Source: a virus (taxonomy: Duplodnaviria > Heunggongvirae > Uroviricota > Caudoviricetes). Taken from it: a DNA stretch of 9,254 bases. Below the pieces are notes generated by a model. The model was not told the origin of the DNA. It did not search any database and saw only the letters and a program-made list of their open reading frames with translations. The stretch lies in the IMG/VR virus record IMGVR_UViG_2778261163_000005; one strand, 5' to 3'. Shown piece by piece: positions 1-9,254 of the stretch. The translations under genes and the position numbers were made by a program. Position 1 is the stretch's first letter. Every line of letters starts with the position of its first letter.

Positions 1-608
1 CGGGCATGGCGCGCATCTGCCTTTACGGGGATTTACAACGATTTGGTCGCCGCATCGACCTTCGTGTGAAAACGGGGGCTGAAGCCATCCGGGCACTGGC
101 CACACAGCTCCCGGCGTTTCGTCAGAAGCTGAGCGACGGCTGGTATCAGGTACGCATTGCCGGGCGTGATACAGGTGAAACGGAATTATCAGCCCGTCTT
201 AATGAACCGCTGGCAAATGGTGCTGTGATCCATATCGTGCCGCGTCTGGCAGGAGCCAAAAGTGGCGGTGTGTTTCAGGCTGTGCTGGGGGCGGCTGTTA
301 TGGCGGTTGCTATATGGATGCCGGGGGTAGGAATTATGGCGAGTAATCTGCTGTTTTCTCTCGGTGCCAGTATGACGCTTGGCGGTGTTGCACAGATGCT
401 GGCACCGAAAGCCAGAACTCCCCGTACACAGACAACGGATAACGGTAAGCAGAACACCTATTTCTCCTCACTGGATAACATGGTTGCCCAGGGCAATGTT
501 CTGCCTGTTCTGTACGGGGAAATGCGCGTGGGGTCACGCGTGGTTTCTCAGGAGATCAGCACGGCAGACGAAGGGGACGGTGGTCAGGTTGTGGTGATTG
601 GTCGCTGA
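1..608 (+). CDS. I: Tail tip assembly protein I (gpI), 5'-partial; reading frame enters the window at nt 3, stop TGA at 606-608
   Basis: The translation (MARICLYGDLQRFGRRIDLRVKTGAEAIRALATQLPAFRQ ... VVSQEISTADEGDGGQVVVIGR) matches lambda gpI as I recall it, starting about 13 residues into the protein, so the true start is upstream of the window. The frame is open to the left edge and the gene sits immediately upstream of J, as in lambda. Confidence 0.9.
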   Translation, partial: GMARICLYGDLQRFGRRIDLRVKTGAEAIRALATQLPAFRQKLSDGWYQVRIAGRDTGETELSARLNEPLANGAVIHIVPRLAGAKSGGVFQAVLGAAVMAVAIWMPGVGIMASNLLFSLGASMTLGGVAQMLAPKARTPRTQTTDNGKQNTYFSSLDNMVAQGNVLPVLYGEMRVGSRVVSQEISTADEGDGGQVVVIGR

Positions 609-665: not shown

Positions 666-4067
<3,402 letters not shown>

Positions 4068-4085
4068 ATTTTATAACCCAGAACG

Positions 4086-4109
4086 GGCGTCAGAAATGAC
4101 GCCTTTTTT
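4086..4109 (+). terminator. Intrinsic terminator-like hairpin downstream of J (ggcgtca-gaaa-tgacgcc followed by TTTTTT)
   Basis: A 7-bp perfect stem with a GAAA tetraloop is followed by six T residues on the + strand. There is no T tract on the opposite strand, so it is unidirectional. Confidence 0.65.
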
Positions 4110-4133: not shown

Positions 4134-4733
4134 ATGCGTAAACTTTATGCCGCCATTTTGTCCGCAGCCATTTGTCTGGCCGTATCCGGTGCGCCTGCAT
4201 GGGCGTCTGAACATCAGTCCACGCTGAGCGCGGGGTATCTTCATGCCCGGACGAACGTTCCCGGCAGTGATGATCTGAACGGGATTAACGTGAAATACCG
4301 TTATGAGTTTACGGACACACTGGGGATGGTGACGTCGTTCAGCTATGCAGGAGACAAGAATCGCCAGATTACCCGTTACAGCGATACCCGCTGGCATGAA
4401 GATTCCGTTCGTAACCGCTGGTTCAGCGTAATGGCGGGGCCGTCTGTGCGCGTGAATGAATGGTTCAGCGCGTATGCGATGGCGGGTGTGGCTTACAGCC
4501 GTGTGTCGACTTTCTCCGGGGATTATCTCCGCGTAACTGACAACAAGGGGAAAACGCACGACGTGCTGACCGGAAGTGATGACGGTCGCCACAGCAACAC
4601 GTCTCTGGCGTGGGGAGCTGGCGTGCAGTTTAACCCGACCGAATCCGTGGCCATTGATATTGCTTATGAAGGCTCCGGCAGTGGCGACTGGCGCACTGAC
4701 GGTTTCATCGTGGGTGTCGGTTATAAGTTCTGA
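4134..4733 (+). CDS. lom: Outer-membrane protein Lom (Ail/Lom/PagC/Rck family 8-stranded beta-barrel), 199 aa
   Basis: The sequence matches my recollection of lambda Lom ([41 protein letters not shown] ...). It has an N-terminal signal peptide with an AWA-SE cleavage motif, alternating aromatic/hydrophobic beta-strand patterns, and a C-terminal ...GVGYKF ending in Phe, typical of outer-membrane beta-barrels. The ribosome-binding site GAGAGG at 4123-4128 lies 5 nt before the ATG. Confidence 0.92.
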
Positions 4734-4760
4734 TTAGCCAGGTAACACAGTGTTATGACA

Positions 4761-4786
4761 GCCCGCCGGTTCAGGCGGGCTTTTTT
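4761..4786 (+). terminator. Rho-independent terminator downstream of lom (gcccgcc-ggttcag-ggcgggc followed by TTTTTT)
   Basis: A 7-bp perfect G+C-rich stem with a 6-nt loop is followed immediately by six T residues, 27 nt after the lom stop. There is no U tract on the other strand. Confidence 0.8.
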
Positions 4787-4797
4787 GTGGGGTGAAT

Positions 4798-7700
4798 ATG
4801 GCAGTAAAGATTTCAGGTGTACTGAAAGACGGCACAGGAAAACCGGTACAGAACTGCACAATCCAGCTGAAAGCAAAACGTAACAGCACCACGGTGGTGG
4901 TGAACACGGTGGCCTCAGAAAATCCGGATGAAGCCGGGCGTTACAGCATGGACGTTGAGTACGGTCAGTACAGCGTTATTCTGTTGGTGGAAGGCTTCCC
5001 GCCATCGCATGCCGGGACCATCACCGTGTATGAAGACTCACAACCGGGTACGCTGAATGATTTTCTTGGTGCCATGACGGAGGATGATGCCCGTCCGGAG
5101 GCACTGCGCCGTTTTGAGCTGATGGTGGAAGAGGTGGCGCGTAACGCGTCCGTGGTGGCACAGAACACGGCAGCCGCGAAGAAGTCAGCCAGTGATGCCA
5201 GCACATCAGCCCGTGAGGCGGCAACCCATGCGACTGATGCTGCAGGCTCAGCACGCGCAGCCAGCACGTCAGCCGGACAGGCCGCGTCGTCGGCTCAGTC
5301 AGCGACTTCCAGCGCAGGAACGGCATCAACAAAGGCCACTGAAGCATCAAAAAGTGCTGCCGCTGCAGAGTCCTCAAAAAGCGCGGCAGCTACCAGTGCC
5401 AGTGCCGCGAAAACGTCAGAAACGAATGCTGCAGCGTCACAACAATCAGCAGCCACTTCTGCATCCACCGCGACTACGAAAGCGTCAGAAGCTGCCACCT
5501 CAGCCCGGGATGCGGCGGCTTCAAAAGAGGCGGCAAAATCATCAGAAACGAACGCATCCTCGAGCGCCAGTAGCGCAGCTTCCTCGGCAACGGCGGCAGG
5601 CAATTCCGCGAAGGCGGCAAAGACGTCTGAGACAAACGCCAGGTCTTCTGAAACGGCAGCGGGACAGAGCGCCTCGGCTGCGGCAGGCTCAAAAACAGCG
5701 GCTGCGTCGTCTGCCAGTGCCGCGTCAACAAGTGCCGGGCAGGCCTCAGCCAGTGCCACCGCCGCCGGAAAATCGGCAGAAAGCGCCGCATCGTCTGCTT
5801 CAACAGCCACAACGAAGGCTGGCGAAGCCACTGAACAGGCCAGCGCAGCAGCGAGGTCTGCTTCCGCAGCGAAGACATCCGAAACGAACGCGAAAGCGTC
5901 GGAAACCAGCGCAGAATCCTCAAAAACGGCTGCCGCATCGTCAGCCAGTTCGGCGTCGTCATCGGCATCATCTGCGTCTGCTTCAAAAGATGAGGCGACC
6001 AGACAGGCGTCAGCAGCGAAGGGTAGCGCCACGACGGCATCCACGAAGGCGACAGAGGCAGCTGGCAGTGCGACGGCAGCAGCTCAGAGCAAAAGTACGG
6101 CGGAATCTGCAGCAACGCGCGCTGAGACAGCGGCAAAACGGGCAGAGGATATTGCATCCGCCGTGGCGCTTGAGGATGCGAGCACGACGAAAAAGGGGAT
6201 AGTACAGCTCAGCAGTGCGACCAACAGCACTTCCGAGTCACTGGCGGCAACGCCAAAAGCCGTTAAGGCCGCGTATGACCTGGCTAACGGGAAATACACC
6301 GCACAGGATGCAACGACAGCACAGAAAGGGATAATCCAGCTAAGCAGCGCGACCAACAGCACGTCTGAAACGCTGGCGGCAACGCCAAAGGCAGTAAAAG
6401 CAGCCAATGACAATGCTGAGAAACGTCTGCAGAAAGATCAGAACGGTGCGGATATCCCTGGCAAAGACACCTTTACGAAAAATATTGGTGCCTGCCGTGC
6501 CTTCGGTGGGTCAGTAAGCACAACAACAGGAAACTGGACGACTGCACAGTTTATCGAGTGGCTGGATTCTCAGGGAGCATTTAACCATCCATACTGGATG
6601 TGCAAGGGTTCCTGGTCTTATGGCAATAATAAAATCATTACTGATACTGGCTGCGGTAATATTCATCTCGCCGGAGCTGTCATTGAAGTAATGGGGATAA
6701 AGTCAGCGATGACGATCCGCATTACCACACCGACCACCTCCACTGGTGGTGGAACAACTAACGCCCAGTTTACCTATATTAATCACGGAACAGATTATTC
6801 ACCTGGCTGGCGAAGGGACTATAACTCCAGAAATAAGCCAACGGCATCAGAGATCGGGGCGTTACCGTCAGGTGGAACAGCAGTATCATCAGTTAATCTG
6901 TCTTCAAAAGGTCGGGTAACCGCGCTGACAGACAATACGCAGGGGGCAACAGGTCTTGAGTTATACGAGGTGTATAACAACGGATATCCAACAGCGTATG
7001 GAAATATCATTCACCTGAAAGGGATGACAGCCGTTGGCGAAGGTGAGTTACTCATCGGCTGGAGTGGTACAAGCGGTGCTCATGCTCCGGCATTTATTCG
7101 TTCACGACGGGATACGACCGACGCAAACTGGTCGCCGTGGGCGCAGCTTTACACCTCGGCTCATCCTCCTGCAGAGTTTTATCCAGTCGGTGCACCAATC
7201 CCGTGGCCATCAGATACCGTTCCGTCTGGTTATGCCCTGATGCAGGGGCAGACTTTTGACAAATCTGCTTACCCGAAACTTGCAGCCGCTTATCCGTCAG
7301 GCGTGATCCCTGATATGCGTGGCTGGACGATTAAGGGCAAGCCCGCCAGTGATCGAGCCGTATTGTCTCAGGAACAGGACGGCATTAAATCACACACCCA
7401 CAGCGCCAGCGTATCCAGTACGGATTTGGGGACGAAAACCACATCGTCGTTTGATTACGGCACTAAATCCACGAATAACACTGGTGCGCATACCCATAGT
7501 GTTAGCGGTACGGCTGCTTCAGCCGGTGCACATACCCATTCGATGACATTTGTTTCAGGTGGTTCCAGTGGTGCTCCGGGAAGTGGATCACCTGATTATT
7601 CTAAATACAGTGTTAACACTTCTTCTGCAGGCGCTCATACGCACTCTGTATCGGGTACTGCTGCAAGCGCAGGTGCACACGCACATACTGTCGGTATTGG

Positions 7701-7821
7701 TGCTCATACGCACTCCGTTGCGATTGGTTCACATGGACATACCATCACCGTTAACGCTGCTGGTAACGCGGAAAACACCGTCAAAAACATCGCATTTAAC
7801 TATATTGTGAGGCTTGCATAA
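4798..7821 (+). CDS. stf: Side tail fibre protein Stf, intact and enlarged (about 1007 aa from the ATG at 4798; the ORF track begins two codons earlier at GTG 4792)
   Basis: The N-terminus ([26 protein letters not shown] ... [13 protein letters not shown]) matches what I recall of lambda Stf (orf-401). The C-terminus (...[31 protein letters not shown]) matches what I recall of the lambda orf-314 end. The stop overlaps the tfa start. GTGGGG at 4787-4792 is a plausible ribosome-binding site for the ATG at 4798. Confidence 0.88.
5150..6170 (+). repeat. Ala/Ser/Thr-rich low-complexity shaft region of Stf with degenerate tandem motifs (recurrent A-K-[TS]-SETNA..., [16 protein letters not shown])
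   Basis: About 340 codons are dominated by GCN, TCN and ACN codons, and short peptide motifs recur many times. Long open frames appear on both strands in the other registers, which is characteristic of such repeats. Confidence 0.75.
6193..6405 (+). repeat. Two direct copies (about 6193-6273 and 6325-6405) of a roughly 27-aa tail-fibre repeat (KGI[VI][11 protein letters not shown][ST][11 protein letters not shown])
   Basis: The two copies are near-identical at the peptide level and clearly similar at the DNA level, about 130 nt apart. The motif resembles the phage tail fibre repeat found in lambda Stf and relatives. Confidence 0.8.
7484..7689 (+). repeat. Direct repeat pair encoding [17 protein letters not shown][TA]H (7484-7543 and 7630-7689) within a His-x-His-rich fibre tip
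   Basis: Two 60-nt segments encode almost the same 20 residues. Further HxH motifs surround them (SHTHS, GAHTHS, GAHAHT, GAHTHS, GSHGHT). Confidence 0.75.
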
Positions 7822-8405
7822 TGGCATTCAGAATGAGTGAACAACCACGGACCATAAAAATTTATAATCTGCTGGCCGGAACTAATGAATTTATTGGTGA
7901 AGGTGACGCATATATTCCGCCTCATACAGGTCTGCCAGCAAACAGTACCGATATTGCACCGCCAGATATTCCGGCAGGCTTCGTGGCTGTTTTCAACAGT
8001 GATGAGGCATCGTGGCATCTCGTTGAAGATCATCGGGGTAAAACGGTTTATGACGTGGCTTCCGGCGACGCGTTATTTATTTCTGAACTCGGTCCGTTAC
8101 CGGAAAATGTTACCTGGTTATCGCCGGGAGGGGAATATCAGAAGTGGAACGGCACAGCCTGGGTGAAGGATACGGAAGCAGAAAAACTGTTCCGGATCCG
8201 GGAGGCGGAAGAAACAAAAAACAGCCTGATGCAGGTAGCCAGTGAGCATATTGCGCCACTTCAGGATGCTGTAGATCTGGAAATCGCAACGGAGGAAGAA
8301 ACCTCATTGCTGGAAGCCTGGAAAAAGTATCGGGTGTTGCTGAACCGTGTTGATACATCAACTGCACCTGATATTGAGTGGCCTACGAACCCTGTCAGGG
8401 AGTAA
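7821..8405 (+). CDS. tfa: Tail fibre assembly protein Tfa (chaperone for the Stf C-terminal domain), 194 aa
   Basis: The sequence ([54 protein letters not shown] ...) matches my recollection of lambda Tfa, which is also 194 aa. The start ATG overlaps the stf stop (TAATG). GTGAGG at 7807-7812 is a plausible ribosome-binding site. Confidence 0.92.
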
Positions 8406-8419
8406 TCATTGGGATTATG

Positions 8420-8453
8420 CCGCAGAAACGTTGTATGCAATAACGTTCTGCGG
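8420..8453. other. Imperfect hairpin in the convergent tfa / permease spacer (ccgcagaaacgtt - gtatgcaat - aacgttctgcgg); a second 7-bp hairpin lies at 8462-8481 (atgcact-ttcgag-agtgcat)
   Basis: Both inverted repeats are visible in the sequence. Neither is followed by a clear U tract on either strand, so a terminator role is only a possibility. Confidence 0.3.
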
Positions 8454-8617
8454 TTGGCTGATGCACTTTCGAGAGTGCATGTATTGAATTATTTCCAGCT
8501 ATTATCGATTTTACGTATTTTTTGCATGAGAGAATTTGTACCTCCTCCCAACAACGACCTTCCATGACTTTCCGGACTTCTGTGGGCCAGCGGACGATGC
8601 TGTCCTCGGATGTTGTG

Positions 8618-9254
8618 CTAATTGGGTGATGACAAATCCTGTGTATGGGTGTTTCCCTTTGTGCGTGCGTTGATGCTGGTAACGGTGAACGTCATGATGA
8701 ACACAACCGCGAATAAGACGACAATCGTCGGAGCTGGTGCACTGTCGATAAAAAAGGACAACCAGACACCAGTCATTGACACTATTACCGATATGCCAAT
8801 CGCCAGTAGGAGCGCAATATGAAAGCGTTGTGTCAGGAGTACCGCAATGGCGCCAGGCGCAATGAGCAGAGAAATGGAGAGAATGATACCTACCGCTTTC
8901 AGCGTCGCCACAATGGTCAGAGAGACCATGCACAGCAGCCCATAATGCAGACATCTCGTATGCAAACCGCTTACCTGCGCCTGTTGATAATCAAAGCTGA
9001 ACAGCAAAAAATCCCGCCATTTTACGCTAATAACAAGTGTAACCAGCCCGGCAATAATCACCGTCTGGATTATATCGCCGATGGTTACCCCGAGCATGTC
9101 GCCGAAAAGAATATGGTCAAGATGTACGTCTGGTTTGACTGCAATATACAAGATCAGACCTGCGGCAAACATGCCAGAAAAAACAATCCCCATCACTGTA
9201 TCTTGCTTGATTCGGCTGTTGTCTTTCAGGTATCCCGTCGCCACCGCGCAGAAT
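8618..9254 (-). CDS. sitD: ABC-3 family divalent-metal (Mn2+/Fe2+-type) transporter permease, SitD/MntB-like, 5'-partial (frame open to the window edge; stop TAG at 8618-8620)
   Basis: The protein is strongly hydrophobic with multiple predicted membrane helices. It carries family motifs (D-x-x-LFGD near the start of the visible part, and LKAVGIILSISLLIAPGAIA) similar to ZnuB/MntB/SitD permeases. The gene symbol is an inference from the family and from the known association of sitABCD with lambdoid prophage tail regions in E. coli and Shigella; it could instead be another ABC-3 permease. Confidence 0.6.
   Translation of the reverse strand, partial: FCAVATGYLKDNSRIKQDTVMGIVFSGMFAAGLILYIAVKPDVHLDHILFGDMLGVTIGDIIQTVIIAGLVTLVISVKWRDFLLFSFDYQQAQVSGLHTRCLHYGLLCMVSLTIVATLKAVGIILSISLLIAPGAIAVLLTQRFHIALLLAIGISVIVSMTGVWLSFFIDSAPAPTIVVLFAVVFIMTFTVTSINARTKGNTHTQDLSSPN

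Follow-up and report, generated by a model that had tools for sequence, protein, structure and literature searches.

A full-length stfR-type side tail fibre gene apparently assembled from known fibre cassettes

The viral DNA analysed here (9,254 nucleotides, hereafter the window) contains a side tail fibre gene, stf, whose product is larger than that of lambda and differs from it in the middle. This raises the question of whether the gene encodes a new type of side fibre, as a sequence-only reading of the window had implied, or an allele of a type that is already known. Very probably, the region holds stf, here an allele of stfR, and directly after it the chaperone gene tfa, both belonging to a Rac-type lambdoid prophage in E. 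coli. Judged from its sequence matches, the encoded Stf is an ordinary, catalogued allele in which every module is already known.

The window extends from gene I to tfa and also includes sitD. The genes J (669-4067), lom (4134-4733), stf (4798-7821) and tfa (7821-8405) are each intact, and their order is the same as in lambda, Rac and PhiR26_1. The features of the locus are as follows.

4760..4781, plus strand: terminator-like hairpin between lom and stf, with an 8-bp stem (7 GC pairs) and a T-run
4798..7821, plus strand: stf, side tail fibre gene, an uninterrupted ORF of 1007 codons and a stop
4798..5100, plus strand: N-terminal virion-attachment (collar) domain and linker, aa 1-101, placed by Pfam and PDB matches
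5101..6180, plus strand: shaft rich in Ala, Ser and Thr, aa 102-461, a homologue of the proximal coiled coil in lambda
5707..6010, plus strand: shaft stretch of about 105 aa, absent from lambda stf and present in StfR, placed by blastn and the protein offset
6181..6303, plus strand: Phage_fiber_2 repeat (Pfam PF03406), copy 1, aa 462-502
6313..6435, plus strand: Phage_fiber_2 repeat, copy 2, aa 506-546, an extra copy relative to StfR and lambda
6436..6867, plus strand: module A, aa 547-690, a globular module of the Mu S'/P1 Sv' type
6868..7167, plus strand: module B, aa 691-790, a module of the P1 Sv'/StfQ type
7168..7821, plus strand: T4 gp37-type collar and needle (receptor-binding tip), aa 791-1007 and the stop
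7510..7635, plus strand: hypervariable tip loop, aa 905-946, with His boxes on both sides
7821..8405, plus strand: tfa, tail fibre assembly chaperone, 194 aa, its start overlapping the stf stop by one base

The plus-strand ORF is listed at 4792-7821, has a lambda-type ATG at 4798 and contains no internal stop. The limits given in the sequence-only reading, 4798 to 7821, correspond exactly to the ATG and the TAA, and its count of about 1007 uninterrupted codons was confirmed. The length of the ORF and its end-to-end homology to tail-fibre proteins indicate that it is not a chance reading frame; its best PHROG match is phrog_295 "tail fiber protein" (E 1e-251). Three ORFs overlapping the shaft (5295-6044 and 5474-6157 on the minus strand, 5192-6202 on the plus strand) were put down to the composition of the GC-rich Ala/Ser/Thr codons and regarded as artefacts, and the annotated "orf206b" of lambda was likened to them. 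The dN/dS of stf is 0.075 against StfR, 0.106 against PhiR26_1 and 0.167 against lambda. These values of 0.07-0.17 point to purifying selection, that is, constraint on Stf at the protein level. The adjacent tfa product matches Pfam Caudo_TAP (PF02413, E 1.5e-44) and shares 97% identity with lambda Tfa and 95% with TfaR; in many genomes this chaperone is annotated tfaQ. Conservation of the hairpin that precedes stf extends to K-12 Rac, lambda and PhiR26_1.

The closest genome is that of E. coli E275a, matched over the full window at 98.6% identity. The prophage of this strain carries racR, ydaSTUV, trkG, terminase, capsid, tape measure, J, lom, stf and tfa, followed by sitDCBA, uspF and ompN, and it looks complete, with genes for replication, lysis, head and tail. 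Since it is of the Rac type and lies at the K-12 Rac locus, the gene is assigned as an stfR allele. A literature search for sitABCD together with the Rac prophage found nothing; sitABCD itself is a common moron of lambda-type coliphages (PMC6969025).

The stf gene is 99.6% identical at the nucleotide level to the E275a gene for RefSeq WP_071686011.1, a "prophage tail fiber N-terminal domain-containing protein" recorded from E275a and others. The two proteins are equal in length (1007 aa) and differ in a single residue, R282K. The exact protein sequence was not found in a collection of 15 billion proteins; this reflects the single difference from WP_071686011.1 and is not evidence of novelty. 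The architecture, counted where at least 80% of the gene is covered, occurs in 638 of 5426 complete E. coli genomes (about one in eight), and 99 records are at least 99% identical to stf. It is shared by the deposited phages PhiR26_1, for which the recorded host is E. coli K-12 MG1655, mEp460_ev081 and SPF_0923.

The N-terminal part is of the known attachment type. Pfam phage_tail_N (PF08400) covers aa 1-134 (E 1.7e-72), and the N-domain of the Ur-lambda tail fibre (PDB 9E7M/9MGH) matches aa 1-94 (E 1.5e-52); the limits of this domain were set after the Ur-lambda structure paper (PMC12617516). In 30-residue windows, aa 1-101 are 96-100% identical to StfR and 90-96% identical to lambda, and over aa 1-135 the identity to lambda is 86-96%. 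Together with 67% identity, with gaps, over aa 795-1007, this bears out the earlier statement that both ends are lambda-like.

The shaft is dominated by small residues: aa 121-460 consist of 37% Ala, 24% Ser and 12% Thr (74% Ala+Ser+Thr). It is 90-100% identical to K-12 StfR in 30-residue windows. In the comparison with Ur-lambda by blastn, homology ends at 5706 and restarts at 6011, and across this stretch the protein offset to lambda shifts by +105 residues. The same stretch is 96-100% identical in StfR and PhiR26_1. The shaft is thus longer than that of lambda, as had been claimed, by about 105 residues, and a second Phage_fiber_2 repeat is added to it. Tandem Repeats Finder detected no tandem array in stf, and the internal direct repeats of the shaft are degenerate and dispersed; this means that the variation in shaft length is not simple repeat slippage.

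The shaft is followed by two stretches matching Phage_fiber_2 (E 5.8e-37). This 41-residue repeat occurs twice here and once each in lambda and StfR. Copy 2 corresponds to a 44-residue gap in the StfR alignment and is also present in PhiR26_1. At the DNA level, the pair appears as a direct repeat (6173-6279 and 6305-6411) with 77% identity. The two copies share only 28 of 41 residues and 80 of 123 nucleotides, so the duplication is not recent.

In the middle of the protein, GC content falls from about 0.61 in the shaft to about 0.47 in module A. Module A matches residues 178-334 of the Mu gp52/S' fibre (PDB 8JU3, E about 1e-70) and is 81% identical to P1 Sv' aa 215-358. AF2 was used to model aa 540-800 as a monomer, with a mean pLDDT of 62.6; the values for module A are 80-90, and module B is of low confidence. 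The only significant match of this model in a Foldseek search of the PDB was again 8JU3 (E 3e-20). Module B is 64% identical to P1 Sv' aa 47-153; no solved homologue was found for it, and a weak Pfam Gp34_trimer match (E 0.0017) was below the cutoff and was not relied on. From aa 707 to about 905 the protein is nearly identical to the StfQ remnant of K-12 Qin. The A+B cassette is present at a coverage of at least 80% in 800 genomes. Between the window and PhiR26_1, dS is 0-0.02 in this cassette and about 0.11 in its flanks; such near-zero synonymous divergence between diverged flanks indicates that the cassettes move between alleles.

The distal end matches the T4 gp37 tip (PDB 2XGF) over aa 794-1007 (E 5e-86), with Pfam Collar (PF07484) at aa 798-845. 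It has seven His-x-His motifs, all of which align with those of T4 gp37. Outside the loop, the tip is about 96% identical to StfR in 30-residue windows. Nowhere but in the loop at aa 905-946 does the protein depart from PhiR26_1, StfR, StfQ and lambda alike, and the loop differs from that of T4 too. By blastn, the alignment to PhiR26_1 breaks at 7508 and restarts at 7635. The closest phage DNA to the loop is in the gp37-type fibre gene of the T4-like phages AV116 and AV118 (83% nucleotide identity).

From these matches, the gene appears to be a recombinant of known cassettes, with a StfR-type front, a middle of the P1/Mu/StfQ type and a gp37-type tip. The sequence-only reading implied a new Stf subfamily with a novel receptor-proximal domain. 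Against lambda alone, the 244 residues in the middle do look unique: aa ~547-790 have no counterpart in lambda Stf, the best 30-residue windows reaching 20-33% identity, which is noise, and no Pfam model is above threshold there. The claim that the middle differs from lambda is therefore correct. However, close relatives exist for the whole of it in Mu S', P1 Sv' and K-12 StfQ; it is the P1 Sv'/Mu S' module pair, with 698 matching cluster representatives at E 1e-5 or better and PHROG families covering it. The alignment proposed as a check for a novel segment revealed none, and this Stf is a full-length member of a described subfamily, one residue from a RefSeq protein and common among the complete genomes, the very outcome that the sequence-only reading had named as counting against it. 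A new subfamily is thus highly improbable and was rejected on the grounds of prevalence, the WP_071686011.1 match and the homologies to Mu S', P1 Sv' and StfQ. The description as an intact mosaic fibre larger than that of lambda is right, but the implied distinctiveness fails, the front being StfR-type and the last ~300 residues StfQ-type. Lambda is the wrong yardstick for a gene in a Rac-type prophage, and at 1120 and 1025 aa, respectively, StfR and PhiR26_1 Stf exceed the Stf of the window in length. The same homology to the invertible segments of P1 and Mu could suggest that the variable end is a host-range switch operated by a Gin/Cin/Pin-type invertase, as in Mu, P1 and K-12 Rac/Qin/e14, and in K-12 Rac and Qin the genes pinR and pinQ lie directly after tfa. 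This reading is extremely improbable: no inverted repeats of at least 20 nucleotides were found in 4700-9254, sitD and no invertase gene follows tfa, and the window contains no second, opposed copy of a fibre end or of tfa. It was rejected for lack of inverted repeats and an invertase. With crossover sites, invertase and opposed fibre end all missing, the gene is not a member of the Mu/P1 invertible type and shares only modules with it.

It should be mentioned that an intact ORF by itself says little about use, because the stfR of K-12 Rac is intact although that prophage is defective. The prophage from which the window derives might likewise be defective, in which case the fibre would never be built and the gene would be a dormant reservoir of cassettes for recombination with incoming phages. 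The StfQ remnant kept in defective Qin fits such a role, as does the mobility of cassettes indicated by the low dS of A+B; in addition, the completeness of the prophage lies outside a window that spans only I to tfa plus sitD. On the other hand, in the closest genome the genes for replication, lysis, head and tail look complete, the dN/dS values indicate continued constraint, all four genes from J to tfa are intact, and a nearly identical fibre is carried by deposited phages. We consider a dormant reservoir unlikely. The expectation that this phage makes functional side fibres is reasonable in the light of the intact tfa, the dN/dS values, the PhiR26_1 Stf and the E275a prophage, as far as sequence can indicate.

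If the stfR-type gene is expressed in this way, three Stf chains would, by homology, form one fibre, and the N-terminal domain (aa 1-~91) would attach it to the tail. In Ur-lambda, the collar at the gpV/gpM junction consists of twelve copies of this domain and thus accounts for four fibres (PMC12617516). By analogy with the Ur-lambda conformation, the shaft would be an Ala/Ser/Thr-rich coiled coil, and its ~105 extra residues would add a calculated length of roughly 15 nm relative to lambda. Two Phage_fiber_2 repeats and then two globular modules of the P1 Sv'/Mu S' type would follow, modules A and B standing in for the hinge and distal coiled coil of lambda. The fibre would end, by homology, in a gp37-type collar and an iron-stapled needle held by the seven His-x-His motifs, with the distal loop of the needle (aa 905-946) as the probable receptor contact; in tips of the T4 gp37 type, OmpC and/or LPS is bound through the distal loop. 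Tfa, by its homology, would help the tip to fold and trimerise. The structure and role of the Ur-lambda fibre have been described (PMC12617516, PMC11338833): its Stf forms trimers, four per virion, which speed adsorption (PMC12617516). By analogy, the fibre proposed here would hasten reversible adsorption before J binds its own receptor. It is possible, though rather doubtful, that the combination of a StfR-type long shaft, modules A and B and an AV116/AV118-like tip loop gives a receptor specificity uncharacterised for lambdoid side fibres (for example, for an OmpC variant other than that of K-12, or for a type of LPS core); equally tentatively, the low dS of A+B may reflect a recent spread of the cassette through E. 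coli prophages.

As a discovery, a catalogued allele of a well-studied fibre family carries little weight, and the modular, recombining nature of the family has been known for decades. The locus is nevertheless a clean worked example, in which one natural fibre combines cassettes that it shares with the StfR of Rac, a siphovirus prophage, with the S' fibres of myoviruses (P1/Mu) and with gp37 of a T-even phage; the junctions were mapped in the DNA by blastn and can be placed to a few tens of bases. What the full-length parent of the K-12 StfQ remnant looks like can also be seen here. Fibre modularity has already been used to retarget lambda particles (PMC11338833), and candidate splice points for engineered fibres lie here past the second fibre repeat, near "QNGADIP", and at the His boxes flanking the tip loop.

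Among the known systems, T4 gp37 shares only the tip: aa 794-1007 align end to end with 2XGF and all seven His-x-His motifs are conserved, whereas the tip-loop sequence differs and the chaperone in the window is a lambda-type Tfa. The invertible fibre ends of Mu S' (gp52) and P1 Sv' have the "QNGADIP" junction motif in common with the Stf of the window. P1 carries module B ahead of module A, the reverse of the order in the window. In contrast to Mu and P1, the distal receptor-binding end here is gp37-type, and the N-terminus is of the siphovirus Stf type instead of one for attachment to a myovirus baseplate.

The Ur-lambda Stf (774 aa; PDB 9E7M/9MGH; PMC12617516) agrees with the window in gene position, in its N-terminal collar domain, in its Ala/Ser/Thr shaft, in its gp37-like tip and in having Tfa, with 81% identity over aa 1-352 and 67% over the tip. 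By comparison, the shaft of the Stf in the window is longer by about 105 residues, the fibre repeat is present once more, and modules A and B take the place of the Ur-lambda hinge and distal coiled coil (aa 394-525). There are seven His-x-His motifs here and eight in lambda, and the tip loops differ. What the sequence-only reading stated about lambda proved accurate: orf-401 and orf-314 are annotated separately in J02459, and the intact-stf record KT232076 has a single Stf of 774 aa.

The prophages of K-12 are closer. Residues 3-201 and 259-320 of Qin StfQ (b1547, a 320-aa remnant) are virtually identical to aa 707-905 and 946-1007 of the Stf of the window, and its tip loop is longer and different. 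StfQ lacks everything upstream of module B, which marks it as a truncated remnant. Rac StfR (b1372, 1120 aa) corresponds in prophage type and, in the closest genome, in locus. It is nearly identical over aa 1-494 and 503-554 (96% nucleotide identity over 4648-6279), and most 30-residue windows over aa 1-554, the "longer" shaft included, are 90-100% identical. Over the collar and needle the identity is 81%. The fibre repeat occurs once in StfR, against twice here, and an unrelated middle of ~383 residues stands where the window has A+B (229 aa, nucleotides 6459-7147); the tip loops differ as well. Furthermore, pinR and ynaE come after tfaR in K-12, whereas sitD comes after tfa in the window. 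The order of modules is shared in full with PhiR26_1 Stf (PV340555, XSB42120.1; 1025 aa), which is 93% identical as a protein and whose differences are essentially confined to the tip loop, aa ~905-946.

The stf gene runs exactly from a lambda-type ATG at 4798 to a TAA at 7819-7821, with 1007 codons and zero internal stops, within a + strand ORF at 4792-7821 in the six-frame ORF list. The uninterrupted frame of about 1007 codons described in the sequence-only reading was thus confirmed. What it said of lambda was also correct: J02459 annotates orf-401 and orf-314, into which the frameshift splits the gene, and KT232076, lambda with intact stf, has a single 774-aa Stf. The genes of this region are as follows.

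Genes in the window
6-608, I, tail assembly protein
669-4067, J, 1132 aa
4134-4733, lom, Ail/Lom outer-membrane protein
4798-7821, + strand, stf, side-tail-fibre gene
7821-8405, tfa, 194 aa, its ATG overlapping the stf stop by one base
3' end at 8618, minus strand, sitD, running off the window

The mosaic was mapped by 30-aa windows for the protein and by blastn for the DNA junctions. Residues 1-135 (attachment domain and beginning of the shaft), matched by Pfam PF08400 and PDB 9E7M, are 96-100% identical to StfR, the fibre of K-12 Rac, and 86-96% identical to lambda; the N-terminus is lambda-like, as had been claimed. The Ala/Ser/Thr shaft (aa 136-461; 74% A+S+T) is 90-100% identical to StfR, and lambda is without nt 5707-6010, about 105 aa of shaft. 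Therefore, the longer shaft first noticed is real in comparison with lambda but not distinctive, being merely the StfR form. Two Phage_fiber_2 repeats follow (aa 462-502 and 506-546), whereas StfR and lambda have one copy each. The two copies share 28 of 41 residues and 65% nucleotide identity, and therefore reflect an old duplication or acquisition, not recent slippage. ORFs of 227-336 aa also lie within the shaft in another frame (5192-6202, +) or antisense (5295-6044 and 5474-6157, -). The lambda record annotates a comparable antisense "orf206b", and these ORFs most likely arise artefactually from a codon composition that is GC-rich and periodic.

The region replaced relative to StfR is nt 6459-7147, where GC is about 0.47, as against about 0.61 in the shaft. 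Its upstream junction lies at a conserved 11-residue motif containing QNGADIP, which in Mu S, Mu S' and P1 Sv' likewise sits at module boundaries. The cassette consists of modules A (aa 547-690) and B (aa 691-790). Module A corresponds to residues 178-334 of Mu S' (gp52, PDB 8JU3; E about 1e-70) and shows 81% identity with P1 Sv' aa 215-358, and module B shows 64% identity with P1 Sv' aa 47-153. In P1 Sv' the two modules are thus in the reverse order, which means that A and B are independent cassettes. When aa 540-800 were modelled as a monomer by AF2 from 25 homologues, module A was confident (pLDDT 80-90) and module B was poor. A Foldseek search of the PDB with this model gave 8JU3 as the sole significant match (E 3e-20), with no other for the poorly modelled module B. 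A weak, sub-threshold Gp34_trimer match is only a hint. The different middle module seen earlier holds in that two globular modules stand where lambda has a hinge and a distal coiled coil, but not as a novelty, since they are of P1/Mu S' type. Synonymous divergence from the deposited phage PhiR26_1 was about 0-0.02 in modules A and B (6459-7147) and about 0.11 in the N-domain, shaft, repeats and collar. This suggests a recent spread of the cassette among otherwise diverged stf alleles.

Residues 791-1007, including the Collar domain, can be aligned over their whole length with the T4 gp37 tip (2XGF, E 5e-86), and all seven His-x-His motifs are aligned with those of gp37. Outside a hypervariable loop (aa 905-946, nt 7510-7635) between His boxes, the tip is about 96% identical to StfR, nearly 100% to StfQ, the 320-aa remnant in K-12 Qin, and 86-96% to lambda, in agreement with the lambda-like tip proposed before. 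The loop differs from those of all four compared fibres (lambda, StfR, StfQ and PhiR26_1). The closest phage DNA to the loop region (7468-7671) is the gp37-type fibre gene of AV116 and AV118, T4-like phages of ~168 kb, with 83% identity across 97% of the region; among the collection's lambdoid phages, matches are confined to its edges. The T4-like match is an instance of fibre tip exchange between T-even and lambdoid phages at the His boxes.

The stf DNA is 99.6% identical to the E. coli E275a gene encoding WP_071686011.1, a protein of equal length that differs only by R282K. Because of this single difference, the exact-sequence protein look-up gave no match. Of 5426 complete E. coli genomes, 638 cover at least 80% of stf, and 99 records are at least 99% identical. 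Such coverage is unreachable without the 689-nt cassette, and therefore these 638 genomes share the architecture. The cassette alone reaches at least 80% coverage in 800 of the 5426, and in 1070 records, some partial, the best match reaches 99% identity or more. The same architecture is found in the deposited phages Salmonella phage SPF_0923, mEp460_ev081, PhiR26_1, PhiR68_2, PhiR42_1 and PhiR29. PhiR26_1, whose recorded host is E. coli K-12 MG1655, has a Stf of 1025 aa that is 93% identical, with differences confined to the tip loop. The known protein, its prevalence, and a map in which every segment has a close known relative (30-aa windows, blastn, Pfam and PDB comparison) refute a novel Stf subfamily. 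The original description was accurate, but the distinctiveness it saw was not borne out: the allele is already known, and the gene belongs, as a common, catalogued and full-length member, to the family of StfR/StfQ-type side fibres.

The E275a chromosome matches the whole window at 98.6%, within a complete-looking prophage of 49 kb. This prophage carries racR, ydaS/T/U/V, trkG, lysis genes, terminase, portal and capsid, and later tail tube, tape measure, L, K, I, J, lom, stf and tfa, followed by sitDCBA, uspF, ompN and nifJ. K-12 Rac has trkG, ydaY, lomR, stfR, tfaR and pinR, then ttcC, uspF and ompN. The same position and gene content indicate that the window stf is an allele of stfR in a non-degraded Rac-type prophage. 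K-12 Rac is also the precedent for a dormant stf in a defective prophage. This explanation seems unlikely here, in view of the complete prophage in the nearest genome, the deposited phages with the same fibre, and the constraint on the gene, which is clearly under purifying selection (dN/dS 0.075 against StfR, 494 codons; 0.106 against PhiR26_1, 900 codons; 0.167 against lambda, 300 codons). An invertible host-range switch might be considered from modules common to the G and C segments, but is hardly conceivable, as 4700-9254 contains zero inverted repeats of at least 20 nt and no invertase follows tfa.

In place of pinR and ynaE of K-12 Rac, the sitABCD iron/manganese transporter operon lies directly after tfa (8406-9254). 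Homology of other E. coli prophages to the window ends at about 8455-8574, which marks the junction of this cargo. Lambda-type coliphages are known to carry sitABCD often as a moron; 70% of those isolated in PMC6969025 have it. A hairpin just past the tfa stop (8419-8455, +; GCCGCAGAAACGTT...AACGTTCTGCGG) has a counterpart at the same place in PhiR26_1 (GCCGCAGCACGT...ACGTGCTGCGG), where the stem sequence is different and still pairs; the structure seems to be conserved and is probably a terminator that has no T-run. Rfam IS009 (RF02111) gave a full-length match at 8164-8362 (+; 229 bits where the gathering score is 117, E 6e-57), wholly within the tfa coding region. What this "sRNA" family models may therefore be no more than conserved tfa coding sequence, such as K-12 cryptic prophages also carry. 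On either side of lom stands a strong terminator-like hairpin with a T-run (4085-4104 and 4760-4781, +), which fits a moron that was inserted between J and stf and is expressed autonomously. Lambda, Rac and PhiR26_1 all retain the second of these hairpins; in lambda its loop and stem are variant.

In the Ur-lambda structure, Stf has five parts: collar domain (aa 1-91), linker (aa 92-101), proximal coiled coil (aa 102-393), hinge (aa 394-422), and a distal part with a receptor-binding domain that resembles gp37 and docks on OmpC. At the gpV/gpM junction the twelve N-domains are arranged as a ring, and there are four trimeric fibres, which make adsorption 10-30-fold faster yet are non-essential (PMC12617516). 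From this structure we infer assembly, fibre length and receptor contact. The window fibre would attach to the tail as in Ur-lambda. Its proximal shaft would be ~105 residues longer, roughly 15 nm if helical, followed by the second fibre repeat and by the two globular modules replacing the lambda hinge and distal coiled coil. The end would be a gp37-type needle stapled by iron, and its distal loop should make the contact with the receptor; since this loop is allele-specific, the receptor is not deducible. The chaperone expected to fold the fibre is Tfa, which shares 97% identity with its lambda counterpart. Along its length J shares 90% identity with that of lambda, but the last ~150 aa (from about aa 983; ~3615-4067) are strongly divergent and GC falls to ~0.47 across its 3' part, so that the central-fibre receptor-binding domain is probably not of the lambda LamB-binding type. 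Both adhesins of the phage would then differ from those of lambda.

Mosaicism of tail-fibre genes is long established among lambdoid, P1/Mu/P2 and T-even phages. It has already been exploited for engineering (PMC11338833). As judged by alignment, the present fibre combines a StfR front, a P1/Mu S'-type middle and a StfQ rear. From aa 707 it is nearly identical to StfQ, which starts inside module B and keeps this identity as far as the tip loop (stfQ at 8889-9848 of the K-12 Qin locus against 6916-7821 of the window). The 320-aa "protein" of K-12 is thus the C-terminal remnant of exactly this fibre type, and the window shows its former full-length parent.
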